A stretch of 64,000 nt of DNA from a virus, in the IMG/VR virus record IMGVR_UViG_3300050821_003315, one strand, 5' to 3'. Below, piece after piece: positions 3,944-62,274 of this stretch (positions within the stretch are counted from its first letter, which is position 1; each line of letters opens with the position of its first letter). Under the pieces are notes generated by a model. The model did not search any database, was not told the origin of the DNA, and was given only the letters and a program-made list of their open reading frames with translations. A program made the translations under genes and the position numbers.

Positions 3944-5055
3944 ATGGTTCTGGAAGATTCCTTTCACGTGGAAGAGCGTCGTCCGGCTGAGCGTCATAGC
4001 TGGACGCCTGTAGGGTACTCCAAGCGCTCTGCCACTGATGTGGAACTAGCTGAGATGGTCGCCACCGTAAACCGGTGGCGGCTGTCCGCTGGCCCTAAGG
4101 GCTGGGAATTCCGGGTCGTGCGCACGACTAAGACAGTTACGGAGATTTAATGACTGAGTTCTGGATACGGGAATGGGGTGGCCCATGCAATGACTTGTCT
4201 GCCATCCCACTCGAAAAGCTGAAGGACTACGAAGGTAAGCGCGTACGCGTTGCCCTTGTTTACGCGGGTATCCTTGAACGCGCAGACTACGGTAACGAGT
4301 TCGTCATCCGAGATGGCTGCACTCGTTACCTCAGGCGTTCCCACATCGAATACATACAGGAGCAGTAATGACACCCCCGCACTCAGTAATCATTTCCGGT
4401 GGCGCGTTCAAGCCCGGTGACAGTCGCGAGGAAGACGGTTACATGTGGCTCGCAGGGCCTAACGGTGAATGGACTGTTTATGAGCGTCTTCAGGATAACG
4501 GCGTTCGTCAGGTCCTGGACAGTTACGGCAATGCCAAGCGCTACCGCGTTACGGGTCTCATGCTGGAGGAAGTTCCGCTGTGAACGAGCGATATCGAATG
4601 ATGCGCGAAACAGTCGAGACTGTAGACTATACAGACATCGTAACTACGTCGTTGCTTAACCTGGCACGAGGATTGGACGACGAAGCTACTCGCCTGCTAA
4701 TAGGCAAGCTCATTACGCACTATCTGACTCGTTCTGACGCTATAGACGACTACTACGACAAGTTGTACGCCTTGGAAGACTGTGAGGCGCTATTGTTCAC
4801 CTGGCGCAAGGAAGTGCTGGGGCAGCTGAAAGCGCACCGTAAGGCAGGTGGTGACTAGTGACCTATGCCGCAATGCACGAATACCTAAAGGCGCTTCTGG
4901 AAGTTCCGGAAGGTGTTGTGCACGAAATGCTAGAACTTCTGGAGACCTGGCAACCACTCGACGCTATCGATTTCACAGCTAAGAGCGGTGCTTACACACT
5001 ACGGTGTCCCGGTGGTCAATTCGAGCTTCGCAAGGACGGCGAAAGGGTTATCTGA
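3944..5055 (+). CDS. run of five small coupled hypothetical ORFs (3944-4150, 4150-4368, 4368-4583, 4580-4858, 4858-5055)
   Basis: stop/start overlaps typical of phage operons. Confidence 0.6.
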
Positions 5056-5813
5056 TGACTACGGGCATGAAGGGTTTCAGCGAAGACGGAGACTGGGATT
5101 TCGCAGCCGGAAGTGTCTACGGTTTTCGTTCATGGACGATGGAAGTCAGTAATCCCGGCCCGGAGCTGTCAGAGGTTAGTTTCAGGGTTACGGGACATTG
5201 GGGAGGACACTGGTCTTCTGCCGTGCAGGAAGCTTCATGCAGATACGCCATGACGCAGAACTGGATTGAAAATCCGGATGCCCGTCTTTGTAACAGTCCT
5301 CACGAATCGGTTCCTAGCGAAAACTGCGGGTGTGGATTCTGGGCGTACTGGGAAGCACACGAGCCACTCGGATGTATCTATCCGCATCGACAGTTGAGCG
5401 CGGAATATCACAAGATTGAAGCTGCACCGTACGATACCGCCCAATATACAGGGGTAGACGACGTAAATTGGATTCGAGACCTCAATGAGGCGTGGTACAA
5501 GTGTCCTATTGCAGGTTTGGATGTGCCCCTAAAGGGCATTATCGAGGGATTCGGACGCACCATTATTGGTGAAAGAGGATTCCGCTGCCAGAAAGCAGTA
5601 ATCAAGAATCTCGCAATTCCTGAACCTATTATAGGAGGCGGGTTCATAGCAAGTAAGCAAACCCAAGTTAGAGCGGAGATTGAAGAACTAATAGGCGTTA
5701 GCGTTATTGACCTAGTTAGTTACGGCCTAACGCAAGCAGGAATTGACGTACCGCTCGAAAGCTCAATCAATAACCTGGCAGCGGCTTATGCGAGCTATAG
5801 GAGTACTAAATGA
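5055..5813 (+). CDS. CGCGxWA family protein, paralog 1
   Basis: GSVYGFRSW, GHWGGHW, CGCGFWAYW, GRTIIGERGFR shared with 6893, 9942 and 61279. Confidence 0.8.
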   Translation: MTTGMKGFSEDGDWDFAAGSVYGFRSWTMEVSNPGPELSEVSFRVTGHWGGHWSSAVQEASCRYAMTQNWIENPDARLCNSPHESVPSENCGCGFWAYWEAHEPLGCIYPHRQLSAEYHKIEAAPYDTAQYTGVDDVNWIRDLNEAWYKCPIAGLDVPLKGIIEGFGRTIIGERGFRCQKAVIKNLAIPEPIIGGGFIASKQTQVRAEIEELIGVSVIDLVSYGLTQAGIDVPLESSINNLAAAYASYRSTK

Positions 5814-6073
5814 ACATCGACCTAATAGCCAAGGTGATTGTCCGTGATGCTCTGCGAGAAATGGGCGTTACCGGAAGTGCTCAGGTGGCTCCCGTAGCAG
5901 AGCAGATTGTTACTGCCTTGCGTGAGGCTGGCTTGCTGGTTCCTGAGCCTAAGCCTCCTACGGCCTTTGGGCACCCTCCCGGCGCTAGAGGGCTAGCGGA
6001 CGAGGAACCGTGGGTGGACGTGGATACCGGCGGAAAAAGGCTGTCACCAGGGCCGCCTGTACCAGGGCGGTAG
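5810..6073 (+). CDS. hypothetical protein
   Basis: coupled ORF with SD. Confidence 0.6.
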   Translation: MNIDLIAKVIVRDALREMGVTGSAQVAPVAEQIVTALREAGLLVPEPKPPTAFGHPPGARGLADEEPWVDVDTGGKRLSPGPPVPGR

Positions 6074-6098
6074 GAATACTCTTGGCAAGTTCGTTGTT
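6073..6098 (+). promoter_or_regulatory. SigR/SigH-type promoter
   Basis: GGAATA at 6073 and GTT at 6096, intergenic. Confidence 0.75.
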
Positions 6099-6298
6099 AG
6101 TGCACCGGGAGGTGACACCATGAACAGGATTAAGATAGACAAGGGTTCGTTCTACCTGAGCATCAACAGCGACTACTACGTGTTCCTACTGTCTTTCTTC
6201 AACAGGTTCGACATCTCTCTCATGCACAGTAAGAAGCGCAGGGAACAAATCAGTAAAGCGCGACGAGAAGCGCGTGACGCATTTAAGGGGACAAAGTC

Positions 6299-6727
6299 AT
6301 GAACCGTAAGATTGTCATCGGCGGCGTTGTGGCGGCGGGCATCGTGGGTATCTCGCTCACTGCATGTGGCCCTGCTCACAACAGCTCCGGTGCTACGCAC
6401 AAGGTCAAGCTAGAAAACGTGGGCGTTGCTGGCGGGGCAGTGCCCGCCGCTGACTGTGCTGTCAGCCTGACCGCCAAGGGCATTACCGCTTACCTGGACT
6501 TCCACGGTACCGTAGACGGCCTTACGGCTAGTTCCCAGTGCCACGAGCTTACCAAGGTCGCCACGCACCAGAAGCACGTCACGGTTACGCAGGTGACCGA
6601 TATCCCGGCGTCCTACAAGTCGGTGTGCTCGGCTACGTCCACCAAGGGCTACACCGTCACGGTGTACTCCAAGAACGCGCTGAGTGACGCTGCTGGCAAG
6701 CAGTTCTGCAAGGCATTCGCTAAGTAG
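6299..6727 (+). CDS. putative lipoprotein
   Basis: signal peptide with lipobox SLTAC. Confidence 0.7.
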   Translation: MNRKIVIGGVVAAGIVGISLTACGPAHNSSGATHKVKLENVGVAGGAVPAADCAVSLTAKGITAYLDFHGTVDGLTASSQCHELTKVATHQKHVTVTQVTDIPASYKSVCSATSTKGYTVTVYSKNALSDAAGKQFCKAFAK

Positions 6728-6892
6728 GAGCCATAAAGTGCCGGAGAAGCAATCTGAACTAGAAATTGAACTGCTAAAGTGCCTAAAGGAAGAAGCCGCT
6801 GACCTCAGGGCAACAGTGCGAATGCTTGCAAAGAAGCTGGCGATAACGGCTAAGAAAGTCGAAGAGCTAGAAGCGCTTCAAGAGGGGGAGTA

Positions 6893-7672
6893 ATGCCGCT
6901 AGAGGGCTTTACAGAAAAGCGGGAACCCGATGGCTGGGACCTGGGGCTAGGTAAGGTCATCGGCTACCGCTCTTGGAATTTCCGGCGGCATAACAACACG
7001 TGCCGGATTATGAACAATGCTATGGACGCATACGATAGGTTCGACGCATACAGTTACAGTTCTGAGGAGCTGCTTAAACGGCTCGGTTACCACTCGTCTT
7101 GGTATTCTGGTGGTGCGTGCCGTTGTTCTCATGGACTGTTCGGTAAGTGGGGGCAGCAATGGCCCACTAAGGTCATGGAAGCTAAGTGCTCACGCGATGA
7201 ATCAGTGGGGTGGCCTTTTATCGGTGGCTGGCCCTCTAGAGTTTCCGCAGTTATTAACTGCCCGCGAGTACTGGACAAGCCGGATGAGTGCGGGTGTGGC
7301 ATCTGGGCCTACTGGGACCTGCCAGCAGACGCTGATTTCGCCATGGATAGAAGCGGTAGTGCTGTTTACTGGCCAGTGGCGGGGCGTATTGAGGGTAGCA
7401 GTCGCGTCGTAATTGGGGAAAAGGGCTTCCGGTGCGAAAAGGCCACACTAACCCACCTGTTCGTAGTGCATAACACCCCCAAGGACGTTACTGACGACTT
7501 GGAGAAGACATTCGGGATTCCGGTCTTCAGGGGTGGCAAGAATACGCCTTTCACCAATCCGGTTCACGATTCAATCAAGCAAAACACCGAAGCTGACCCT
7601 GTTTACGGGCCTACTTGGCATCCCAATGACCCGATGTGGCGAAAGACGATACGAGTTATCACGGGGTTCTAA
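6893..7672 (+). CDS. CGCGxWA family protein, paralog 2
   Basis: GKVIGYRSW, GKWGQQW, CGCGIWAYW, RVVIGEKGFR. Confidence 0.8.
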   Translation: MPLEGFTEKREPDGWDLGLGKVIGYRSWNFRRHNNTCRIMNNAMDAYDRFDAYSYSSEELLKRLGYHSSWYSGGACRCSHGLFGKWGQQWPTKVMEAKCSRDESVGWPFIGGWPSRVSAVINCPRVLDKPDECGCGIWAYWDLPADADFAMDRSGSAVYWPVAGRIEGSSRVVIGEKGFRCEKATLTHLFVVHNTPKDVTDDLEKTFGIPVFRGGKNTPFTNPVHDSIKQNTEADPVYGPTWHPNDPMWRKTIRVITGF

Positions 7673-7929
7673 TGACAGCAGCAATAGAAGAAGTCGTAAT
7701 TGAGGGCATCGACCTAGATAACGTCCCTCCGTGTGCGTTGCCGTCGATTATCAGGCGAGATTGCGGACACCCCAGCGCATACCATATCCGCCCTAAGTGC
7801 GCAGACTGTGGCTGGCTTACCGCTAAATTCGTTTGCGAGGGCTGCCACCAGAAGCTGCTAGACGGCAAGGTTTGGTGTCCGCACCACGGTGCCGTTAAGG
7901 GCCTGCTAATAACCTGGGAGTACCTGTAA
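7672..7929 (+). CDS. small Cys-rich zinc-finger protein (paralog of 60194)
   Basis: DLDNVPPC..CGHPS..KCADCG..CEGC. Confidence 0.65.
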   Translation: MTAAIEEVVIEGIDLDNVPPCALPSIIRRDCGHPSAYHIRPKCADCGWLTAKFVCEGCHQKLLDGKVWCPHHGAVKGLLITWEYL

Positions 7930-9003
7930 TGACAGAGCGTGTTGCACTAGAGACCCTAGTCCGCTACCACGGTAGCATCGACTACGCGCACGGTGAGTAT
8001 CGCGTTGCAGGTTACTGTGACCCTCACCAGCGATACGACCTTACTGAGTGTACGGTACAAGAGCACTGGCCCGATGGCGTTGCTTACGAGCTATGGCCGG
8101 ATGGCATGGAGCGTAAATTCGGGTTGCGGGAAAACGCACTGTTTTACGTGCGCCGTAGCTCTTTCACAGTGCTGGAGACCTCATGAGTGACGAACGTCAG
8201 GATGTCGTAGACCGCGAAGCCGTGGGTATCGCCTTGATGGTGGCCAATGACGACGATAGTGCCGTCCGGGACAAGCTAGCCACCTTTATCCGGGAGCCTG
8301 ACCGCGTTACGGAGATGCTTCTGGGGTCTATGACTATCAGCGGCGTGCTTATGCAGATAGTGGCTCGGCTACTGGAAATCTCTAATGATGAAGTGGCCGG
8401 AATGTTGCTGGAAGTCATGTGATTACGAAACCGTGGGCCTGCGCAATTCTAATAGTAAGCCTGTACGCCATCATGGTCACTATGGTGGTTATCACACATA
8501 GCCCCTGGTTCATATTTCTCGCGATACCGATGGCGCGACTGATTGTAGAAGCCAGGCGTCCGTAATCTGTTCACTTGTTGACTAATAGGGTTTTAGGGGA
8601 GGATTGCTCGATGCTCGCAGCTAACGGCTGGCAACACACCCAATCAAGAGTCAGCGCCCCGCCATGGGCACCCTACAAGCGCATCCGTGTGGATAGCGGC
8701 ATGGTTAAGCTGCTTAAAGCACTGTGGAAGCAGGGAGTAGTTACCCGGTTCTCTTGTGAGTGCTGGAACGAGTGGAGCTGTGAGTACAACCCTTACGGGC
8801 ACTTCACTGAAGACGGTAAGGTTCAAGTGGTTTTCACAGGCGAAAACGATAAGGAAAACAGGGACTACGGCGTCCACGCTCTGCGTGAGCTTCTAGGCGT
8901 TGAAGAGCTTTATCCGGTAGGGTGGTGCTTTCATGAGAACTACCTAGAGGATTTGTTTGTCTACTTCCCGAGAGACTTGCTAGTCAAGTTTAATGACAAC
9001 TAG
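7929..9003 (+). CDS. small hypothetical ORFs (7929-8186, 8183-8422, ~8611-9003)
   Basis: ORF track; SD and coupled starts. Confidence 0.55.
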
Positions 9004-9361
9004 TTGCCTAATCGCTTTTTAGGAGGGGAATGCTGACATGAAGAATGTTACGGCTAAGTTCATCAGCGTGATGTGCTCGGGATTTACGACGGACCCGGAC
9101 AACAGTGAGATTGGGCTCGGCACGCTAGAAGCACTGATGAGCCAGCTTCCACCGTACGTATTCGGACAGGTTTATCCGGATGATATGACTGATGTTAAGG
9201 ACCTGTAATGGACGCGTACATCAAGCAGTTCCTAGAGCAAGCAAAGAATCGTTATGAAAGAAAGCTAGCCGATTCCCGATTCGATGAAGTGGCTGAGGCT
9301 TACAACTTCGGTGCTATAGACGCTATTGAAGAAATGCTCGAATACGTCCTTCATAACTACG

Positions 9362-9387
9362 GGAATACTTCCGACTGACAAGTTGTT
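9362..9387 (+). promoter_or_regulatory. SigR/SigH-type promoter
   Basis: GGAATA at 9362 and GTT at 9385; heads the run leading to GH5/GT2. Confidence 0.75.
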
Positions 9388-9417
9388 GGCATCGGTCGAG
9401 ACTACGAGAGGACCACT

Positions 9418-9933
9418 GTGGGACGCTCCCTAGACGTGACGGTAGTGTATGGCTACGACCTTGGCGGGTCGGAAGCCGGCTGGAAGTTCAACAAGGCTGG
9501 TAAGTACGAGACAGCGTGGCCGTCCTGGGTGAAGCTGAACGAAGACGGTTACCCCGACGATTCTGAGGACGAGGGTTTTGCTGAGCAAGCAGGTGACTAT
9601 CTTCTACGAGAGATGGCAGGATTCACAGAAGAGTATCGGGCGTCGTCCGCTAGTGACTACTTCGCACGCAAGAAAGCGGCCGAGCAGGCCGCTGGCATTG
9701 ACAAGCTGGTTTTCGATAGCCGGGGCGCATCATATGATTATGACCAGTGGGCCTTTGGCATAAAGCTAGGGTCAGGTTACGACATCCTGGAAATTAATCG
9801 TAACTGGTTCGACCCCGCTACCTTGAACTCTTACGACGCGATTCTTAATCGCGCTGTCACGCTCATGCAACTGGAATTCGACCCTGCTGAGCAGCCAGGG
9901 CCTAGAGTGCTGGCACTCGTTTCATTCTTCTAG
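9418..9933 (+). CDS. hypothetical protein
   Basis: 171-aa ORF with GAGG SD. Confidence 0.7.
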   Translation: MGRSLDVTVVYGYDLGGSEAGWKFNKAGKYETAWPSWVKLNEDGYPDDSEDEGFAEQAGDYLLREMAGFTEEYRASSASDYFARKKAAEQAAGIDKLVFDSRGASYDYDQWAFGIKLGSGYDILEINRNWFDPATLNSYDAILNRAVTLMQLEFDPAEQPGPRVLALVSFF

Positions 9934-9941
9934 GGGGAATT

Positions 9942-10643
9942 ATGCCCGGACGCATTTCTGGTATGGAGGGTTTCAGTGAGGCGGGGGAGTGGGAGTTCGG
10001 AGCCGGAACAGTGAAGGGCTACAGGGAATGGCAACTTAAGTACTCTCGCAAGTTCCCTCAGGAGCCTCTGGTTCCCGACAACTATCTTATGGGTCACTGG
10101 GGTGGGCAGTGGACGGGTAGTGATTGGCAGGAAGCACGTTGCGACCTCGCTGAGAGAATGGCTCACCTAGAGCAGGACGCTCATAGTAATACCCTTCAGA
10201 CGATGTTGCCTGAATTTCACAGCCCTTCCGATATCCCGGCAGAGATGTGTGGTTGTGGTTTCTGGGCGTTCTGGGAGCCTACACGCAATGTTCACAAGAA
10301 TGGACCGGTGGACTTCAGCTACCCAGCGTTTACCCTTGACGGTTACTGGGCAGAATTTTCACTGCGTGATAAGCCTGCCTGGGTTAAGGCCCACATTCAA
10401 GGGGTAGGCGAGGGGGCCGGCCGCACCATCATAGGTGAAAAGGGATTCCGGTCTCAGAAGATGAAGATGATTGCGCTAGCTGTGGTGACGCCGAATAGGC
10501 ATCCTATATTCGACGCCTCCATGGAAAAGTTCTTCGACAAGACAGCTGAAGAAATGGCTGATGAAATTAAGCAGCTAGTTGAGCAGATTGTTCCGGGGGT
10601 TCCAATCGTTAATGAAGTAGAGAAGCTTAAGGAGTTTATGTAA
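9942..10643 (+). CDS. CGCGxWA family protein, paralog 3
   Basis: GTVKGYREW, GHWGGQW, CGCGFWAFW, GRTIIGEKGFR. Confidence 0.8.
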   Translation: MPGRISGMEGFSEAGEWEFGAGTVKGYREWQLKYSRKFPQEPLVPDNYLMGHWGGQWTGSDWQEARCDLAERMAHLEQDAHSNTLQTMLPEFHSPSDIPAEMCGCGFWAFWEPTRNVHKNGPVDFSYPAFTLDGYWAEFSLRDKPAWVKAHIQGVGEGAGRTIIGEKGFRSQKMKMIALAVVTPNRHPIFDASMEKFFDKTAEEMADEIKQLVEQIVPGVPIVNEVEKLKEFM

Positions 10644-12256
10644 TGAAGATACGCTGGCTTGCGGCAGCTTTGCTGCCTACCGTACTACTATCGGTATTCG
10701 CTGCCGCACCAGCGTACTCAGCTCCGTCGCACAAGAGTCCTAAGCTCCATTTCAAGCCCGTTAATTCCATGTCATGGGGCACCATCACAAGTGGCGGGCA
10801 CTGCCTTACGGGTACGCCTAAGAACGGCGTTGCTGTGGCAGGAGAGACTTGCAATGGTACTAACGAGCAGCAGTGGAACTTGTCACTAGACGGAACTCTC
10901 ACCATGAGGGCTAGCGGTGGTGCTTACTGCCTGGACAATTCGTCTAACCACAACCCGCTAGAAGCTCAGATGTGGGAGTGCAATGTAGATAACGCACAGC
11001 ACTGGACCTACTCCCTACCAGGAATCATAACGGCTAAAGGTTCTGGTGCAAGCTTCCATGGAGACTGGGTGATGAACGGCGGGGCTTTCCCCGGCTTCAG
11101 TACTACACGCGGAGACGTGTCCCTTCATGGCCTGAACATGGTTGTGGGAGACAAGTACTACATTCCGCTAGGCATCAACCTTAATGGCACGCAGTATCCT
11201 TACGGCGTTGACCCCGGTCAGCTTGACAATGCCTGGTACCTTGACGGTCAAGGTCAGCCACAGTACACCTCGTGGGAAACACAAGCAGAAGACCAGGAAG
11301 ACGTTAGCGTTAACACCTGGCACGCCAATACAGTTCGCATCTTCATTAGCCAAGACACACTCGTGGACCCTGCTTCTGGAGATGTAGACGCTAATTACCT
11401 TGCCGGACTCAGGGAAGTAGTTAGTCATGCTCAAGCAGACGGACTGATGGTAGTACTAGTGGACCAGACTGAGCCAGACGCTATTGCCCACGACAACCAA
11501 CCACTACCCACGCACACTACCGTCAACGTGTGGAACGCACTTGCACCTTACTTCGCAGGTGACAACTCAGTAATCGTTGACCCGTTCAACGAGCCACGTT
11601 CGGACGACACAATGACTGACAACTCAATGTGGAACCTATGGCTTAACGGTGGCTTCTCGGGTGACACTACCTACGTTGGCATGAACTCACTAGTTGCGAC
11701 ACTACGGAGTGAGGGCTACACCAACATGCTGTGGGCAGAGACTCCTGACTTCACCGGAAACGTTGGAGAACAATCACTGGGACGAGTTGCTTCTGACTTC
11801 ACCGACTGGCACATCACAGACCCAGACAAGCTAACCGTGTACGAATTCCACCACCCTACTTCAGACGGTGTCGCTCGCACGTGGGCTAACTGGGATGTGC
11901 AGTTCGGCAACCTGGTAAAGCACCAGGAAGCCGCTGTAGTTAACGGTGAATGGAGCCAGCGCACTTTGCGTACCGGAACTCCCTTTTCTAATGGAGACGT
12001 AAATGAATGCTGGGGTGACGCTCCGGTGTCAGTTCCGCATTACTTGCGCTACCTGCAAGGCGAGGGAATAGGACTGCTGGGCTGGACGCTTGGTACGGGT
12101 GACGTTAACGGCAACGGCATCCTGAATCAAGATGATGGTAGTCCTGCTACGGCTAACAACTACAACACAACACCTTACTCCTGTTTGACTCCTGACACAC
12201 CCACCCAAGGCGCGGGCCAAGACCTCCAGTCCTGGTTCAGCACGCTAAACCCGTAA
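10643..12256 (+). CDS. secreted ricin-B lectin plus GH5 (cellulase family) glycoside hydrolase
   Basis: Sec signal (AYS-A); QxW ricin repeats (CNGTNEQQW, CNVDNAQHW); GH5 motifs NTVRI, FNEP acid/base, YEFHH, VNGEW nucleophile. Confidence 0.85.
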   Translation: MKIRWLAAALLPTVLLSVFAAAPAYSAPSHKSPKLHFKPVNSMSWGTITSGGHCLTGTPKNGVAVAGETCNGTNEQQWNLSLDGTLTMRASGGAYCLDNSSNHNPLEAQMWECNVDNAQHWTYSLPGIITAKGSGASFHGDWVMNGGAFPGFSTTRGDVSLHGLNMVVGDKYYIPLGINLNGTQYPYGVDPGQLDNAWYLDGQGQPQYTSWETQAEDQEDVSVNTWHANTVRIFISQDTLVDPASGDVDANYLAGLREVVSHAQADGLMVVLVDQTEPDAIAHDNQPLPTHTTVNVWNALAPYFAGDNSVIVDPFNEPRSDDTMTDNSMWNLWLNGGFSGDTTYVGMNSLVATLRSEGYTNMLWAETPDFTGNVGEQSLGRVASDFTDWHITDPDKLTVYEFHHPTSDGVARTWANWDVQFGNLVKHQEAAVVNGEWSQRTLRTGTPFSNGDVNECWGDAPVSVPHYLRYLQGEGIGLLGWTLGTGDVNGNGILNQDDGSPATANNYNTTPYSCLTPDTPTQGAGQDLQSWFSTLNP

Positions 12257-12278
12257 CAATAACCCGAAAGGTAATTCA

Positions 12279-13703
12279 ATGACTGGGACCGATGTCGTTC
12301 TGTGGACACCGCCAGCCGCTCGCGCACCACGACTCAGCCCGACTGCAAAGCTCAAGCAGTCCGCTAGGGTTCTTGTCAGTGAAGTTTCCCGTGCGGTGGA
12401 CAAGATTCGCTACCGTGACCCTGCTAAGGCTGTTAAGACTGGCAGAGTTCTCGTAATGATTCCCGCCCACGACGAGCAGGATTCCATCGGCGTTACCATC
12501 ACTGCTCTTAAGCGTCAGACTCGTACGCCAGACCGCATCGTTGTTATTGCTGACAACTGTGGTGACAACACTGCTGGTGTTGCGCGGCAGTACGGTGCCA
12601 CTGTGATGGAGACTGTCGGTAATCGCGACAAGAAGACCGGTGCCCTTAACCAGGGGTGGGAACACCACCACAAGGGCTTCGAATACATCGCGGGTGTCGA
12701 TGCTGACACTGTTCTTGAGCCAGATGCGTTGCAGCATCTGGAGAAGGAACTACGCGAGGACCGAAACGTTGGTGGCGTAATGGCACGTTACACGTTCCAC
12801 CAAGAGGGGGGAATGCTAGTTCGCATGCAGCGAGTGGAGTTCAGTGACTGGACTGACTCACTCCTGCACAACAAGCGCAACACCTACGTCCTTGGCGGTC
12901 AGCTCAGCCTGTTCCGTGCTAGCGCGCTGCTGAAGGTGGCTGAGAAGCGCATGGGCGTCCCGTGGGACACCTCCAGCCAGGTTGAGGACATGCAGCTCAC
13001 GGGTGACCTGCGTGGCCTTGGCTACAAGACTACAGTTAACCCTGAGGCTAGGGCCTACCCCGGTGCCATGCACAACCTGAAGTCCCTGTGGGCACAGCGC
13101 CAGAAGTGGGACCAGGGTATCGCACGGCTCATCATGACATCGGGACTGAACAAGTGGACGGCAACTCTGGCTACTCAGGTAGCAGGACTGCTATTCAATG
13201 GGTTCATGCGACTGATGTTTGTCGTGATGCTTACCGCTTCACTGTCGGTGCATAAGTTTGACTGGTCTTGGTACTGGCTTATCCCGCCAGCGCTAGCTAT
13301 CTTGCTGAACATCCGGCAGACAATGCGGATGCCTAACAGGACACCACTGGATGTGGTATCAGCGGCAACGCTGGTTCCGGTAGAGCTTTACCTCATCTTC
13401 CGGGCTACGTCCATGACAGTGGCAACGTTCAAGGTCCTTACGGGCACGGGCAGTGATGGCTGGGCGACACAGAAGAAAGCAGAGTCCGGTAAGTCGATGG
13501 GCTTTGGCCCTAAGATTGTCGGGTTCTCCTTGCTACTCATCGGATTCGTTTACGGAGTAGTTACTGCGTGGCAGCACCTTCCCGGTGACTGGCAGGACTA
13601 CACCCTGCTTACAGGGTGGCGTATCCTTGCCGTGCTTACTGCCTTGCAGTGCCTGATGATGGTCAAGCGAATCCTGCGACGACACCGTGGGATGAAGCCG
13701 TGA
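12279..13703 (+). CDS. processive membrane GT2 glycosyltransferase (polysaccharide synthase; PgaC/IcaA/HAS/CslA-like)
   Basis: IPAHDE, DNCGD, KTGALN, DADT, VED, QRQKW (QxxRW-like) and several C-terminal TM helices. Confidence 0.9.
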   Translation: MTGTDVVLWTPPAARAPRLSPTAKLKQSARVLVSEVSRAVDKIRYRDPAKAVKTGRVLVMIPAHDEQDSIGVTITALKRQTRTPDRIVVIADNCGDNTAGVARQYGATVMETVGNRDKKTGALNQGWEHHHKGFEYIAGVDADTVLEPDALQHLEKELREDRNVGGVMARYTFHQEGGMLVRMQRVEFSDWTDSLLHNKRNTYVLGGQLSLFRASALLKVAEKRMGVPWDTSSQVEDMQLTGDLRGLGYKTTVNPEARAYPGAMHNLKSLWAQRQKWDQGIARLIMTSGLNKWTATLATQVAGLLFNGFMRLMFVVMLTASLSVHKFDWSWYWLIPPALAILLNIRQTMRMPNRTPLDVVSAATLVPVELYLIFRATSMTVATFKVLTGTGSDGWATQKKAESGKSMGFGPKIVGFSLLLIGFVYGVVTAWQHLPGDWQDYTLLTGWRILAVLTALQCLMMVKRILRRHRGMKP

Positions 13704-13719
13704 GGCAGGGAATAGCCGC

Positions 13720-14445
13720 GTGAAGGTTCTAGAGCTGTTCGCTTGCGCGGGTGGGGCATCGCGCGGCCTAGTTGCAGCTGGTAATCAGGTGATAGCTACT
13801 GACATCGATGCTGGTTACCTGTACCACAACCCTATTGGTATCGATTCATATGATGGTTCACCACACGGTGGATTCAACGCACCTGTTCGTCAACCTTGGG
13901 AGTGGATAGCGGAAAACGCGCTATCTACTATCGAGGTATTGCCCTGGCAAGATGCGCTAGACAAGCATGCCGACTGGGCAGACTGGATATGGGCGAGTCC
14001 ACCGTGCCAGCTTTACAGCGTGACTAGTCCGCTAAGTGGGGAGGGATATGAAGACCTTGTAAGTCCTGTGCGTGAAAGACTACTTAGTATTGGCAAGCCT
14101 TACGTGATAGAGAATGTGCCTGAGGCTCCGCTGGTAACTCCGTTGATGCTTTGCGGTTGTATGTTCTACGGTCTTCGCGTGTATCGGCCGAGGCATTTCG
14201 AGAGCAATCTAAGCTTGGCGCAGCCTGACCACTACCCGCACAAGCAAACTGTAGTTAAGATGGGTCGTCCGGCAGAACTAGGCAAGAGGATTTCCTGCCA
14301 AGGGCACGTATCCAACCTGCACGTAACAAGAGCGGGGATGGGTTACGACCCTGATGACCTCATTCCTCAGCGAGCGCTTAGTGAAAGCATCCCACCACAC
14401 TTCGCGTTCTACATCGCACAAGAAATGAACAGGCTACTTTCATGA
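13720..14445 (+). CDS. DNA (cytosine-5) methyltransferase, short phage type
   Basis: ELFACAGG (motif I), SPPCQ (IV), IENV (VI), RPRHF (VIII). Confidence 0.85.
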   Translation: MKVLELFACAGGASRGLVAAGNQVIATDIDAGYLYHNPIGIDSYDGSPHGGFNAPVRQPWEWIAENALSTIEVLPWQDALDKHADWADWIWASPPCQLYSVTSPLSGEGYEDLVSPVRERLLSIGKPYVIENVPEAPLVTPLMLCGCMFYGLRVYRPRHFESNLSLAQPDHYPHKQTVVKMGRPAELGKRISCQGHVSNLHVTRAGMGYDPDDLIPQRALSESIPPHFAFYIAQEMNRLLS

Positions 14446-14867
14446 AGCTGCGAAACCTCATCTACCCTCTGATTACGATTGGAGCCATTGCATGCTTGGC
14501 CGGTTGTTCCGTTCCTGGTTGGCATCATTCGATTCCTTCTCCGACGACGACCCCTACGGCTACGAAGATTGCGAAGCCACACCCGAGAGTCCACCCTCAG
14601 CCTAAGCCAGTCAAGCCCGGTGCACTGGTGTCTGTGTTCCGCACCGATGGCTTGAATCCTGTCGTCAAGGTGGACGCACAAGGCACTCCGTACGTCGTGG
14701 CCGCCCTGGACGGGACTACATGGACCTGCTACCCCGGCAAGGGCTTCACCCTTAACGCTACGGGCGGCGTCAGGCTAGACGGCTGGACGTGCTCCACTGA
14801 CAGCATCAGCACCGCTGATGTACTAGGGTTTGCTGCTCTCACCGGCGGCAAGATTGTTCGAGGATAA
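14442..14867 (+). CDS. putative lipoprotein
   Basis: lipobox LAGC followed by a P/T-rich linker. Confidence 0.7.
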   Translation: MKLRNLIYPLITIGAIACLAGCSVPGWHHSIPSPTTTPTATKIAKPHPRVHPQPKPVKPGALVSVFRTDGLNPVVKVDAQGTPYVVAALDGTTWTCYPGKGFTLNATGGVRLDGWTCSTDSISTADVLGFAALTGGKIVRG

Positions 14868-14876
14868 GGAGTTAGC

Positions 14877-15764
14877 ATGTCTGATGCTCTGCTAAAGAAG
14901 CACAAGCTTAGGGTCACTGACCGTGGCTTGCTGCTGATGTGGGGTGCTGTACTATCGCAGGTCGCTGTGCCTATTGGCTCGGCTATCTACTTTCTGGTCA
15001 CTCAGGTCGCATACCAGACCAGGTACGGTAACACCACTACCACCTTCATCGGCCTGAAGGACACGTGGGACCGCCTGCCTGTTCACATTCAGAACGCACT
15101 GCACAACAAGTACCTAGGACATGTCTACCAGGCATTCGGACTGCACAGTCAGTCAGCACCTACCTGGTGGGTTACCGCTCGGCATGACGCACGACATGTG
15201 CTCATTGGTTTCCTGGGTACCTTGCTCGTGCTGGGTATCATGGTGGGCTTTAAGTATGTGAAGAAGCTTAAGTGGCCTGCAATGCTGGGACATCTTGTCC
15301 TTGCGTTCCTAGCTTCGGCTGCTGTTGCTGCCATCATGATTGTCCTGCTGTCTCACGGGCTTGCGTTTGCTGAGCACTGGGGTACCAAGAGTGGTAACCC
15401 GTGGGTTGCTGACTGGGTTAACAAGGGGTCGTGGCAGCTAACTATCATTGGTATCGCCGCTGGTATTCCTGCACATAAGATTCTGGCTCCGGTGTTCGGG
15501 ACGTTCCAGACCATGCAAGCGGAGAAGCGACTTGCCCGCAAGTCCCCGCCGCCTAAGTGGTTCCCGCCGAACTACCGACACCGTTACGCCTACCTTGATG
15601 ACAAATACGACGACCAGCAGGAAGCTGCGCTTCGCGTGGCAAACCAGAGCAAGGTCTTGAAGGTGGCCCTATTCATTGCGATTCCGGTGCTCATGTTCTT
15701 GCTAGGGTTCGGAATTTGGTTGAACTATCTGGGCGGGCCAGCCACTCACGCGCTAGGCCACTAG
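14877..15764 (+). CDS. multi-pass membrane protein
   Basis: about 5 hydrophobic segments; AAGGAG SD. Confidence 0.75.
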   Translation: MSDALLKKHKLRVTDRGLLLMWGAVLSQVAVPIGSAIYFLVTQVAYQTRYGNTTTTFIGLKDTWDRLPVHIQNALHNKYLGHVYQAFGLHSQSAPTWWVTARHDARHVLIGFLGTLLVLGIMVGFKYVKKLKWPAMLGHLVLAFLASAAVAAIMIVLLSHGLAFAEHWGTKSGNPWVADWVNKGSWQLTIIGIAAGIPAHKILAPVFGTFQTMQAEKRLARKSPPPKWFPPNYRHRYAYLDDKYDDQQEAALRVANQSKVLKVALFIAIPVLMFLLGFGIWLNYLGGPATHALGH

Positions 15765-15790
15765 GGAATACTCATGACCGGGACAGCGTT
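15765..15790 (+). promoter_or_regulatory. SigR/SigH-type promoter, leaderless, overlapped by hairpin 15772-15803
   Basis: GGAATA at 15765, GTT at 15788, ATG at 15800. Confidence 0.8.
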
Positions 15791-15799
15791 GTTCCGGTC

Positions 15800-16006
15800 A
15801 TGAAGTTCATCCCCGCACTTGACGGTAGTTTCATCGGCGTAGACCACGTTGCTCGCCTGTTTTTCAGGGAGAACGTCACCAGAGGTACGTGGGAAGTGTG
15901 CGCTTCTGTTGTGGGTCCGCAACAGCCTTTCGTCCTTCACCAGGCTGCGTCATCAGAGTCAGCGCGCACCCTCATCAGGCATCTCATAGAGCAAATCGGG
16001 GGATAG
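15800..16006 (+). CDS. hypothetical protein (leaderless)
   Basis: ATG 9 nt after the promoter GTT. Confidence 0.65.
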   Translation: MKFIPALDGSFIGVDHVARLFFRENVTRGTWEVCASVVGPQQPFVLHQAASSESARTLIRHLIEQIGG

Positions 16007-16182
16007 ATGGCTCAGTGGTCTGAACGAGATATGGCCGCTGTACTAGCGGCAGCGGTAGAACAGCTTACTGTTGTGAAGAACACGCACTTCATGGGACAAG
16101 TAGGTAACGTGTTCCAGTTTGAAGTGAAGCTTCGCAACGCACAGACCTTTATAGTTAACGTCGCAGAGAAGTAGGAGATGTC

Positions 16183-16983
16183 ATGACGGTGACCTTGACA
16201 GGTTCCCGTGCGATGAAGCGCTGGTATCCAGATGCGCGGGAGCCTAATGGTGACTGGGACTACATCAGCGCCGAGCCAACCAACCCACCTGCGGACCTCT
16301 TCCCCGAGCGCCGTTATGATGTGTTCACTGACGAGCGACTGGATGCTTGGCCGTGGTGTTCGCTGGCAAGTCCTAATGAGTTGTACACGCTTAAGATTTC
16401 TCATAGCTTCTGGGAAATTAACGGCCCGCGTGACTGGGATAAGCATGCTTATGACATCGTGTTCTTGTCACGTAAAGGCTGTCAGTTCCTACGTTCGCTG
16501 TACGATATCCTCTTCCCTATCTGGAAAGAACGCTACAAGAAGCACTCGACTAACCTGAACCAGAACGCTGACAAGTTCTTTGCTGACGCTGTAGTCCGTA
16601 AATACGTGCACGACTCGGTGCACGACTCGGTAGCCTACGGCGAGCGGCCTCTATACGAGGCCATCCTGCGGGACGGCTCGGACGTTCTCGTGGACAACGC
16701 CAAGTTCTGGTCGATGGACTTCGAAACTCAGGTTAAGCTGGTACGCGAGGAAATCTACACCACGGCACTGGAGCGCATCCTGATTCCTCAGCAGTACCGG
16801 GGGTCGCCACGAGCGGCCTACCACTGGGCGCTACGGCGTACGGCCACGAGCCTGTTTAAGGGAGAGTGGGCACTGTTTTTGATGCTTAACCTGGACCTAC
16901 TCATGACGCCTGACTGTGACTACGTGAGCAGGCACCTAGACAACAAGCACAAGCTGCAACTGACAGGAGAGGTCAATGACTGA
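16183..16983 (+). CDS. putative pol-beta-superfamily nucleotidyltransferase-like phage protein
   Basis: N-terminal LTGSRA..DWDYI (GS..DxD); ELYTLKISH and YVHDSVH motifs. Confidence 0.65.
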   Translation: MTVTLTGSRAMKRWYPDAREPNGDWDYISAEPTNPPADLFPERRYDVFTDERLDAWPWCSLASPNELYTLKISHSFWEINGPRDWDKHAYDIVFLSRKGCQFLRSLYDILFPIWKERYKKHSTNLNQNADKFFADAVVRKYVHDSVHDSVAYGERPLYEAILRDGSDVLVDNAKFWSMDFETQVKLVREEIYTTALERILIPQQYRGSPRAAYHWALRRTATSLFKGEWALFLMLNLDLLMTPDCDYVSRHLDNKHKLQLTGEVND

Positions 16984-17305
16984 GTACTCCCTCGCTGAGG
17001 TTAAGGAAGCCGCTGAAGCTCTCAACTGGGACGTGGTGGCCCGGCGTGGGGCCGGGCATCTCGGTGCCCTGTGGCTTCATGACGAGCCTGTTACGTTCAC
17101 CATCGTGGACGCCAAGGTCGGTAGTCATTTCGATGGTTACGAGCAAGACGCGCAAGAGAACTTCGTCATCTTCGAGATAGGCAACCAGCTCTTTAAGAAA
17201 GAGGGATGGTCTGATTCTTACGGAGACTCCGAGTGGGATGGAAATGTGACTGAGGTAAAGGCGTCCAAGAAGTACACCACCGTCTACGAGCCGAAGAACG
17301 ACTAG
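16976..17305 (+). CDS. conserved phage hypothetical protein (tandem paralog A)
   Basis: LFKKEGWSDSYG.EWDG..EVKA.KKYTTVYEPK. Confidence 0.75.
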   Translation: MTEYSLAEVKEAAEALNWDVVARRGAGHLGALWLHDEPVTFTIVDAKVGSHFDGYEQDAQENFVIFEIGNQLFKKEGWSDSYGDSEWDGNVTEVKASKKYTTVYEPKND

Positions 17306-17313
17306 GAGAAGCG

Positions 17314-17646
17314 ATAACTGACTACACTCGCGCGGAAGTTCTAGAAGCCCTTCAGGAAATCCTTGACGATGTTGGCTGGGGTGAGCTGAACTCCGACCTA
17401 TATAGCAGCTACGGCAGTCGCCATACTTACACCATCACCTTGCGAGGCGAAGAGGTTCGCCTTAAGGGTGAAGAGAATTACGGTGGCCTTGACCTGGGGT
17501 CGGAAGCGTGGATGGTTATCCGCATCGGTGACCAGCTATTCCGTAAGGAAGGTTACTACGCCTCCCACTATGGCTACGACTGGGACGGTACCTTTGAAGA
17601 GGTAGAGGCTAAGCCTAAGACCATCACTGTCTACGAGCCTAAGTAG
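17314..17646 (+). CDS. conserved phage hypothetical protein (tandem paralog B), apparent ATA start
   Basis: GGAG SD then ATA ACT GAC TAC gives (M)TDYTRAEVLEA, matching MTEYSLAEVKEA; LFRKEGYYASHYGYDWDG..EVEAKPKTITVYEPK. Confidence 0.7.
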   Translation: MTDYTRAEVLEALQEILDDVGWGELNSDLYSSYGSRHTYTITLRGEEVRLKGEENYGGLDLGSEAWMVIRIGDQLFRKEGYYASHYGYDWDGTFEEVEAKPKTITVYEPK

Positions 17647-29893: not shown

Positions 29894-30982
29894 CTAGACA
29901 ACGAGGCTGTAGGTGGCTGCCTTAGCGCCGACAACATCGGCGCGAACAGTTACCTTGTAAGTCCACTCACGATGAACGCTTACCTGAGCAGCGTTAGTGC
30001 TAACTACCTGAGAAGTAACCTTACCGTCCTGCTGTGACAGCAGTACTACGTACTTAGTCGCACCCGGAATTACGTCCCAGCTAATCGTCGCTGTTACGTA
30101 ATCAGATACCGTTAGTTGTGCCGGAGCAGGCGTCGGTGGTACCGGGGGAACCGGGGGAGCGGGAGTGGGGTTCGGAATAGGCTTGGACTTCTTGTTTACT
30201 AGAGCGCCCCACGTAGCAGGTCCTACGATACCATCGGCTGCTAGCTTGTTCACTGACTGGAACTCCTGTACAGCCTTCTTGACGGTAGGACCGAACGCAT
30301 CCGGACCACCATCAGCATTGCCTAGCTGAGCGTTGTGAGAATCCAGTAGAATTCGCAGCTTGTCAACAGCAGCCTTGTTCGTGCTACCTTCCTGTATGGT
30401 AGGCTCCTGCGGCGGGGGAAGAGGCCCGGTGCCAACCATGTACGTCGGCACGATAGACGTATCGTAAGCATTGTTAGTGGCGTACTGAGTAGCGTCTGCC
30501 TGCGGATAACCGCACGTACCGGGACCGCAGATATGCGCGCCGATGTAGTGCGCTGACCAGATGAAGTAAGACGAGCGAGGAATTCCCGCTGAGGTCAGAG
30601 CGTTCACAATGGACGAAGTCCAGCTAGCGCTGCCGTAGAACCACGGCTTAACAGCGCCACCGTGACTAGAGTTATGCCAGAAGCCGGGAGCGTTAGCCGG
30701 CACAGCGTCGCCAGGCTCGATGTCAATGCACATAGCGCCGTTAGCGCCGTTCGGAGAGACACTTACAATATAAGCACGCGGGAATCGTGCGCGCATCTCC
30801 GTCAAGTTGGCATAAGTACCGTTGTAGTAGCCTGCGTAGGCAGGAAAGCCTGGTTGTAGGTCAGATACAGTAACCGCATCTTCCATATAGATAACAGGCG
30901 TGCCCTTAAGCGCGCCTAGCTGCGGCGATACTGCCGATGCGACCCTCGTCTTGAGGGTCTTAAGAGAGCGAACGATAGGCAC
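29894..30982 (-). CDS. endolysin: GH25-like muramidase plus peptidoglycan-binding and FN3-like domains
   Basis: CIDIEPGD, PWFYGS, WSAHY, ATQY; PG-binding FGPTVKKAVQEFQ..LAADGIVGPATW; ORF track start 31012, SD-supported GTG at 30982. Confidence 0.8.
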   Translation of the reverse strand: MPIVRSLKTLKTRVASAVSPQLGALKGTPVIYMEDAVTVSDLQPGFPAYAGYYNGTYANLTEMRARFPRAYIVSVSPNGANGAMCIDIEPGDAVPANAPGFWHNSSHGGAVKPWFYGSASWTSSIVNALTSAGIPRSSYFIWSAHYIGAHICGPGTCGYPQADATQYATNNAYDTSIVPTYMVGTGPLPPPQEPTIQEGSTNKAAVDKLRILLDSHNAQLGNADGGPDAFGPTVKKAVQEFQSVNKLAADGIVGPATWGALVNKKSKPIPNPTPAPPVPPVPPTPAPAQLTVSDYVTATISWDVIPGATKYVVLLSQQDGKVTSQVVSTNAAQVSVHREWTYKVTVRADVVGAKAATYSLVV

Positions 30983-31028
30983 GGTATCCTCCAGGTGTGA
31001 CTGCTCACTCAAAGGATACCGTGCTTAG

Positions 31029-61278: not shown

Positions 61279-62274
61279 ATGAGGCGCACTATGAGTAACG
61301 AGCTTGATGAGCTTACTTTTCTGCTAAATGCCAGCGTCGATGAAGTGCGCAACACCTCCTTTAGCCGATGGCAAGGACTAACGGATAATAGCTCGGCCAT
61401 GAAGGGCTTCACAGGCGAGGCAGAGCTGGCCGTAGGGAGTGTTCAAGGGTACCGGTGGTGGAAGATGTACCCGATGAAACAAGACGCGCTCATAGGCGCT
61501 TACGGAGGCCGCTGGGACCCTGGTGACGCCTTTTACGAGGGTGAATGCCGCAGGGCACGGTTGTACGGTAAGGTACCCGAGCATGCGGCTCCTGAGCCTA
61601 GCTGCGGGTGTGGTTTCTGGGCGTTCTGGAAGCCGGCTGATGCCAGCGTAATACTGGACAAGACGGCTATCACAATCCAGGGCGTAGTAGAGGGCTTCGG
61701 TACTGTACTTATTGGCGATAAGGGTTTTCGCTGCGGTAAGGTGCGCCTTAAGGGCCTAGCAATAGATAAAGACCACCTGCGCCGGACTATGGAAGAAGAG
61801 CGTAAGCGAAACTTCGATGGCTATTTTACGCAGACGTATAAGAATCAGCTAACCGCAGGCCCTTGGCGCTCTCCCACCTTTAAGACTGAAGGGGCAGTTA
61901 ACACACACGCTCAGATTACGGGGCGAAAGATAGAAAGTGCTGTTGACGCCAGTATCCCTGAAGAAATACTTGACTGTGCGGTCGCTGAAATTGAGGGAAC
62001 TCTAGAAGAGCTTTACCCTTCGGTTAAAGTGTTTTGCTCTATGAGTACGATGCGCACTTATTTTGGTCACGACAAGAATTATGGCTATGCGTCAAGTAGG
62101 TGCCCAGACGTACTAGCTATGGGCCAGGACTGGCTCCAGCGAGTTCTGTTGAAGCTCACCACGCTTAGCTGGGACCTAGGTGAAGCTCTCTGGGAGACTA
62201 ACCAAGGCTGGGCAGCAGCGCGAGAGGTCAGGCGCATGGGGGACCTCGTACGCGAGATTATAGATGAGCTGTAA
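61279..62274 (+). CDS. CGCGxWA family protein, paralog 4
   Basis: GSVQGYRWW, GAYGGRW, CGCGFWAFW, GTVLIGDKGFR. Confidence 0.8.
   Translation: MRRTMSNELDELTFLLNASVDEVRNTSFSRWQGLTDNSSAMKGFTGEAELAVGSVQGYRWWKMYPMKQDALIGAYGGRWDPGDAFYEGECRRARLYGKVPEHAAPEPSCGCGFWAFWKPADASVILDKTAITIQGVVEGFGTVLIGDKGFRCGKVRLKGLAIDKDHLRRTMEEERKRNFDGYFTQTYKNQLTAGPWRSPTFKTEGAVNTHAQITGRKIESAVDASIPEEILDCAVAEIEGTLEELYPSVKVFCSMSTMRTYFGHDKNYGYASSRCPDVLAMGQDWLQRVLLKLTTLSWDLGEALWETNQGWAAAREVRRMGDLVREIIDEL

Follow-up and report, generated by a model that had tools for sequence, protein, structure and literature searches.

A candidate envelope-glycan module with a membrane glycosyltransferase and a secreted glycanase in a large, probably virulent phage

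Surface polymers made by a virus are established for the giant viruses of algae. The surface changes known to us from bacteriophages are single-sugar decorations or prophage O-antigen polymerase swaps. Could a lytic bacteriophage bring a complete glycan synthase, together with a glycanase, to the envelope of its host? This question is raised by a gene run in the 163,509-bp IMG/VR virus record IMGVR_UViG_3300050821_003315. The minus strand of positions 67509-131508 of this record was analyzed (64,000 nucleotides; referred to as the window). The core of the run is a secreted glycoside hydrolase of family 5 (GH5), P0001, followed directly by a membrane glycosyltransferase of family 2 (GT2), P0002. 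An original prediction had taken the run for a candidate system that coats the infected cell with a polysaccharide. Here, we propose an envelope-glycan module active in the lytic infection of a filamentous actinomycete, and we give this proposal an even chance of being correct.

Gene run and genome

Five open reading frames (ORFs) were found on the + strand in the positions and the order that had been predicted. Because they are long and reach family scores well over threshold, they are not chance ORFs. Long ORFs are closely packed on this strand from ~7.9 to 17 kb of the window. The five genes are as follows.

10643..12256, + strand: P0001, 537 amino acids, glycanase composed of a carbohydrate-binding module of family 13 (CBM13, Ricin-B) and a GH5 domain, predicted to be secreted
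12279..13703, + strand: P0002, 474 amino acids, membrane GT2 with a predicted cellulose/hyaluronan-synthase-like fold
13720..14445, + strand: P0003, DNA-methyltransferase-like gene (phrog_363, 61 bits)
14442..14867, + strand: P0004, small lipoprotein with the lipobox LAGC, candidate accessory protein
14877..15764, + strand: P0005, membrane protein with four strong transmembrane (TM) segments, candidate accessory protein

The record was rated 100% complete by CheckV. It has a GC content of ~54% and carries phage genes for ribonucleotide reductase, DNA polymerase, primase, helicase, tail-fibre proteins, and endolysin. Neither a tyrosine nor a serine integrase was found across the whole 163.5-kb genome. 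This large soil phage is therefore probably virulent, and action in lytic growth, as in chloroviruses, is favored over classical lysogenic conversion, which was rejected for the same reason.

Motifs and predicted fold of P0002

P0002 matched the Pfam families PF00535 (65.4 bits), PF13632 (64.4 bits), and PF13641 over threshold. In an alignment of 120 homologues, D141-x-D143, E236-D237, and Q273-R274-x-K276-W277 were invariant, and D92 was nearly so. An AlphaFold2 model calculated from this alignment was of high confidence (pLDDT 87.6, pTM 0.81). It consists of a cytosolic GT-A domain (~55-265) and an interface helix carrying the QRQKW motif (267-288), followed by TM helices that were assigned from hydrophobicity and the model at ~292-323, 331-349, 409-432, and 436-466. 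The TM helices expected in the GT2 were thus recovered as hydrophobic helices after residue 290.

Foldseek placed a Chlorella-virus hyaluronan synthase (HAS) at the top of the structures resembling the model (E 2e-16, TM-score 0.60), followed by Xenopus HAS1, BcsA, and yeast and oomycete chitin synthases. Soluble or peripheral GT2s such as SpsA and TarP ranked lower and matched the GT-A domain only. When a viral structure library was searched with the same model, giant-virus HAS and chitin synthases came out on top. The model shows a GT-A domain resting on interface helices and joined to a TM bundle, the arrangement of the HAS/BcsA/chitin synthase class. In its predicted fold, P0002 is thus built as a membrane-embedded synthase, unlike soluble or GtrB-type GT2s, as the original prediction had implied.

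Two closer assignments were rejected. The best curated family of P0002 was PgaC_IcaA (TIGR03937); its score of 86.3 bits lies under the cut-off of 422.3 bits, which speaks against PgaC orthology. P0002 ends after its last TM helix, has no PilZ match, and has no BcsB-like neighbor, and membership in BcsA was dismissed on these grounds.

Secreted GH5 protein P0001

P0001 begins with a hydrophobic signal peptide (residues 1-27, ending AYSA/P). A Ricin_B_lectin domain follows (PF00652, residues 45-134, 46.7 bits versus a cut-off of 29), and the QQW, QMW, and QHW repeats of its beta-trefoil (~45-134) are visible in the protein. The Cellulase/GH5 domain (PF00150, residues 209-484, 64 bits versus a cut-off of 23.5) belongs to a (beta/alpha)8 barrel that extends over ~155-537 and possesses both the acid/base residue in N-E-P and the nucleophile Glu. 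Among 45 homologues, the motif DPFNEPR with the acid/base residue E317 was invariant, as was the nucleophile E436 (EW). No single GH5 subfamily, glucanase or mannanase, stood out clearly as the best match. The Pfam matches, the signal peptide, and the short distance to the next gene all bear out the claim that a ricin-B/GH5 enzyme with an export signal lies directly 5' of the GT2.

As far as protein and metagenome collections reach, the GH5 lineage of P0001 is very rare. Only eight of its proteins were found in a collection of 5.8 billion, one of them from a metagenome-assembled genome of Trebonia. A metagenome scan confirmed 148 loci with GH5 homologues, of which the best 80 were kept. Beyond the two closest contigs, these 80 were ~30-42% identical to P0001 and came mostly from soil and peat.

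Linkage of the genes in related phages

A 181-kb relative (IMGVR_UViG_3300050821_003907) carries P0007, P0006, GH5, GT2, lipoprotein, and TM protein in the same order as the window. The identities are 77% for the GH5, 85% for the lipoprotein, and 94% for the TM protein. The gap between GH5 and GT2 is 22 nucleotides in both of these genomes, which were read as DNA. For three further contigs (52.3, 76.8, and 169 kb), gene content was deduced indirectly from protein records. The first of them, a 52,285-bp contig of a third phage, holds a GH5 (P0130, 51% identity), a GT2 (P0138), a lipoprotein (P0144), and a TM protein (P0146, 81% identity). As judged from these sequences, GH5 and GT2 are linked among the nearest relatives, and a more widely conserved set appears to be made up of GT2, lipoprotein, and TM protein. 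A 14-kb contig carries the lipoprotein and the TM protein, and a 38-kb contig is also among the carriers of the closest GT2s. No further close relatives were found among viral contigs scanned with P0009 and P0010. Neither the 5.1-kb region (megablast) nor the GH5 (tblastn) had a match among 50,697 phage records.

The original prediction had named a methyltransferase gene between the GT2 and the lipoprotein gene. P0003, DNA-methylase-like by its phrog_363 match, does lie there, but the 181-kb relative has no such gene: its lipoprotein gene comes next after the GT2, and 278 bp of unrelated sequence take the place of window positions 13706-14438. Because the gene is absent there, P0003 is a recent insertion inside the module and not a part of it.

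The predicted lipoprotein and multi-TM protein after the methyltransferase gene were confirmed by the lipobox of P0004 and the four TM segments of P0005. Behind its lipobox, P0004 has a Pro/Thr-rich linker and a beta-rich C-terminal domain. Neither P0004 nor P0005 matched a family in Pfam, NCBIfam, or PHROG. Homologues of P0004 were limited to related phage contigs (181, 76.8, 52.3, and 14 kb), and every one of these contigs also carries the GT2 and/or the TM protein. For P0005, an Atlas search gave nothing above noise level, and an exhaustive HMMER search returned 35 metagenomic representatives, which makes it a metagenome-only family.

Cellular relatives and a second GT2-GH5 pairing

The GT2 family of P0002 is large, with at least ~1,000 matches among the top 8,000 candidates scored, and the members seen were mostly from Actinomycetota. 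The phage group (P0002 together with P0008-P0011, which are assumed to be viral) came out as sister to proteins of Streptosporangiaceae, Cryptosporangium, and Klenkia in a maximum-likelihood tree (SH-aLRT 98). These cellular GT2s are solitary and stand beside two-component regulators or unrelated genes; neither a flippase nor a polymerase was seen near the closest cellular homologues. Such isolation would be expected of a self-sufficient synthase.

A fully supported clade comprises 11 loci of Solirubrobacterales and Conexibacter in which the GT2 adjoins, on the same strand, a GH5 with a CBM2 module.

~5800-9300 of each locus, same strand: pair of GT2 and E1-like GH5 with CBM2, the GH5 lying before or after the GT2

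The neighboring GH5, of the endo-beta-1,4-glucanase type, matches Acidothermus endocellulase E1 at 1e-88 and shares no more than 28% identity with the phage GH5. The phage and cellular GH5 proteins thus belong to different lineages, and the two pairings are therefore independent. From these comparisons we deduced that the GT2 family was joined to GH5 on two or more occasions, involving distinct GH5 lineages and distinct binding modules. Among the indirect arguments for a GH5-cleavable beta-glycan as the product of the family, this double pairing is the strongest. It also makes a cellulose-like beta-1,4-glucan the best guess for that product.

Two side observations concern the cellular clade. 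Its GT2s are without the last two TM helices of P0002, and the Conexibacter-type pair is a candidate for a stand-alone cellulose-like synthase system in its own right.

Proposed function of the module

Starting from the observed domains, catalytic residues, fold class, linkage of the genes, and bacterial GT2-GH5 pairing, we infer a course of action that involves processivity, translocation, a particular sugar, a partnership of the two enzymes, and a benefit to the phage. P0002 would be embedded in the cytoplasmic membrane, its GT-A domain facing the cytosol. It would take a UDP-sugar and elongate a beta-linked glycan as hyaluronan, cellulose, and chitin synthases do, and the glycan would be threaded outward between its C-terminal helices. 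P0001, exported by Sec and held to the glycan by CBM13, would trim or release the polymer or cut the wall matrix in its path, a role that would match those of BcsZ, CslZ, and PgaB for cellular synthases. P0004 and P0005, the companions of the GT2 in relatives, may serve as accessory factors. The net outcome would be a remodeled or coated cell surface. In filamentous sporulating actinomycetes, the beta-glucan that the CslA system makes at the tip is important in growth and attachment.

A bolder version of this proposal is put forward tentatively. It sees in the run a virulent phage's own synthase-dependent exopolysaccharide system (GT2, dedicated GH5, lipoprotein, and four-TM protein, the last two from families met so far on phage-like metagenomic contigs only) that coats actinomycete hyphae. 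Such a system would be a bacterial-virus counterpart of chlorovirus coating, arisen independently of the Solirubrobacterales GT2-GH5(E1) pair. The phage might benefit from receptor masking or exclusion, or from keeping its progeny away from debris. The original prediction had named receptor masking and cell aggregation; both are speculative, as is the identity of the polymer as a beta-glycan.

Virus-encoded glycan synthases and bacterial synthase-glycanase pairs are already known, and the module in the window is a variant of these. Chlorovirus hyaluronan and chitin synthases (PBCV-1/CZ-2, class I HAS) share 13-16% sequence identity with P0002. The two N-terminal TM helices of HAS are missing from P0002, and the chlorovirus host is an alga, whereas the host here is a bacterium. 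Chloroviruses combine the synthase with enzymes for sugar precursors, whereas this phage combines its GT2 with a secreted glycanase. In contrast to the cellular BcsA-BcsZ, CslA-GlxA-CslZ (Streptomyces), and PgaC-PgaB systems, the genes are phage-borne, and the set is without a PilZ domain and without a BcsB, PgaD, or GlxA partner. Its hydrolase is GH5 with CBM13, whereas the bacterial pairs use GH8, GH6, or GH153/CE4. A literature search turned up no publication on a phage that combines a processive GT2 with a glycanase.

The nearest phage proteins are membrane GT2 'morons' of phrog_22973, which P0002 matches at 1.9e-59. These belong to the same family as P0002, with 27-39% identity, and are all uncharacterized. 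They include Microbacterium phage Sparcetus gp65, Brevibacterium phage Cantare gp95, and Arthrobacter phage SilentRX gp79, and proteins of the Lactobacillus phages LpeD, Lb338-1, and T25 and of Oenococcus phage OE33PA. The glycosyltransferase of OE33PA is termed only 'moron' in the literature. Unlike P0002, the phage GT2s of phrog_22973 have no GH5, lipoprotein, or P0005-like neighbor. In the isolated actinophages Sparcetus, Cantare, and SilentRX, the glycosyltransferase has ~357 amino acids, matches P0002 up to residue 402, and is without the last two TM helices. A gene of ~50 amino acids follows it directly.

5170-5322 of the Sparcetus locus: ~50-amino-acid gene directly after the glycosyltransferase
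5074-5238 of the Cantare locus: ~50-amino-acid gene directly after the glycosyltransferase
5062-5217 of the SilentRX locus: ~50-amino-acid gene directly after the glycosyltransferase, the only one of the three with a membrane annotation

The glycosyltransferase and the small gene of the actinophages together look like a split form in which the last TM hairpin of P0002 is encoded separately.

If a lytic phage does carry a complete synthase-plus-glycanase set, this would be a new way to reshape the host envelope, with possible uses in excluding competing phages, stopping progeny from sticking to debris, and holding hyphae together. The locus also points to a widespread, uncharacterized actinobacterial GT2 family whose members are probably stand-alone glycan synthases, and it offers a functional hypothesis for the unexplained membrane GT2 'morons' of Gram-positive phages. 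Cultured phages of Microbacterium, Arthrobacter, Brevibacterium, and Lactobacillus carry such GT2s, and the hypothesis is thus testable in culturable relatives.

Evidence against a dedicated synthase-glycanase pair and alternative explanations

Several observations weigh against P0002 as a processive synthase served by P0001. The first group concerns the GT2 itself. The motifs D, DxD, ED, and QRQKW were present as predicted, but the last of them departs from the canonical QxxRW, with K invariant across the family in place of R. An N-terminal TM helix is absent from P0002, which has only ~four TM helices, all after the catalytic domain, and this makes a complete channel a tentative assumption. 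PcManGT (PDB 6YV7) ties as best fold match, aligned only to residue 392. This archaeal membrane mannosyltransferase, which has a minimal cellulose-synthase-like fold, is said to be non-polymerizing, and a synthase-like fold in a model is therefore no proof of processivity. Regarding the grouping of the GT2, the fold sides with the synthases, and the equal match to a non-processive enzyme counts on the other side. Finally, the GT2 profile compared with PDB sequences reached the nucleotide-binding half only (chondroitin synthase, TarS/TarP, and others), so kinship with the synthases is a matter of the predicted fold.

The second group concerns linkage. The 76.8-kb contig encodes a GT2 (77% identity) and the lipoprotein, and the 169-kb contig encodes a GT2 with 63% identity; in the indirect reading from protein records, neither gave a GH5 match. 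A 4.4-kb contig carries a GH5 of 68-72% identity in a different gene context. A GT2 of this kind was near the GH5 in 0 of the 78 other metagenomic GH5 loci (among the best 80 of 148), and none was linked to the cellular homologues of the phage GH5. In phages Sparcetus, Cantare, SilentRX, LpeD, T25, and OE33PA, the GT2 relatives stand alone. The predicted linkage of GH5 and GT2 thus holds for the 181-kb relative, where they are adjacent, and for the 52-kb phage, where they share a contig, but it was not seen in more distant relatives. Likewise, the predicted partnership of synthase and endoglycanase is made plausible by the E1-like GH5+CBM2 clade and is weakened by the standalone GT2s of other phages.

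These points bear most directly on the explanation that P0001 and P0002 are neighbors by chance, which we regard as possible but on the unlikely side. P0002 would then be a non-processive transferase that acts on a wall glycopolymer or polyprenyl-phosphate and alters receptors, and P0001 would be a free depolymerase that aids the escape or spread of progeny by loosening exopolysaccharide or wall glycan of the host itself. Standalone membrane GT2 'morons' are indeed common in Gram-positive phages; that of T25, for example, sits in the lysogeny region, and that of OE33PA comes after the lysis genes. GH5 homologues elsewhere never stand beside this GT2. The tie with PcManGT and a weak N-terminal match of P0002 to the GtrB-like phrog_841 (29.9 bits, residues 57-201) fit as well, but QRxKW, ED, and a full-length synthase fold are foreign to GtrB/DPMS-type enzymes. 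Moreover, no GT-C-like partner was found among the neighbors of P0002, P0005 having only about four TM helices. The likely host lineage has its own GT2 homologue (~50% identity), the product of which could be the substrate of the GH5. On the other hand, the GH5 is still found with the GT2 after divergence to 51% identity, and the independent bacterial GT2-GH5 pairing argues for a functional link.

It is improbable, in our estimation, that the GH5 is the main actor and serves as a lysis or entry helper, cutting wall-linked beta-glycan in a role like that of mycobacteriophage LysB. GT2, lipoprotein, and TM protein would then form a separate membrane module, for example for superinfection exclusion by altering the membrane or wall without polymer export. 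The position of the GH5 was compared with that of the endolysin gene.

29894-31012, strand opposite to the GH5: endolysin gene, in another block of transcription direction

The export signal, the lectin-type binding module, and the intact catalytic residues of P0001 would suit such a helper, but the GH5 lies a long way from the endolysin gene, and it directly adjoins the GT2 in both genomes read. GT2, lipoprotein, and TM protein do co-occur more widely than the GH5, as on the 76.8-kb and 14-kb contigs. Glycosylation of phage virion proteins by P0002 was rejected as very improbable, as the protein is integral to the membrane with a synthase-like fold and is encoded among non-structural + strand genes, outside the structural operon.

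Intein-like insert in the GT2 of relatives

GT2s of 786 amino acids are encoded by the 181-kb phage and by the 52-kb contig. Both proteins contain an insert of 312 amino acids exactly between N93 and C94 of the invariant ADNC nucleotide-binding motif; the GT2 of the window is free of it.

9920-10849 of the 181-kb relative locus (IMGVR_UViG_3300050821_003907): intein-like insert, site equivalent to window 12557/12558

The insert starts with Cys, ends with Asn followed by Cys+1, and contains LAGLIDADG-like motifs. By these hallmarks it is a putative intein with a homing endonuclease. Pairwise alignment of the two GT2s gave ~55% identity for the inteins and ~93% for the C-exteins. Between the window and the 181-kb relative, DNA identity was 76% upstream of the insertion site and 89% downstream. 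An intein at ADN/C would fit a conserved site in a gene that is kept functional. Glycosyltransferases go unmentioned in the main text of a 2025 survey that covers ~800 inteins of actinophages.

Upstream element and neighboring genes

A promoter had been predicted at 9362. A simple sigma-70 consensus scan of the + strand from 8400 to 17500 found none, and the claim was not upheld. A conserved element was recognized close by.

9376..9417, + strand: conserved intergenic element ahead of the gene run and just before the ORF at 9418

These ~40 nucleotides are identical almost base for base in the 181-kb relative, versus a DNA background of 76%. They include GAGAGGA ahead of a GTG start and do not fit the sigma-70 consensus. 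The 14-mer at 9376 was not found as a repeated motif within the window. The conservation makes a regulatory element (promoter or ribosome-binding site region) plausible.

P0006, a protein of 233 amino acids without an assigned family, has three paralogues in the window with 27-34% identity. The four genes lie at 5004-5813, 6893-7672, 9942-10643, and 61279-62274. One copy of this type directly adjoins the start codon of the GH5, and several copies are also present in the 181-kb relative.

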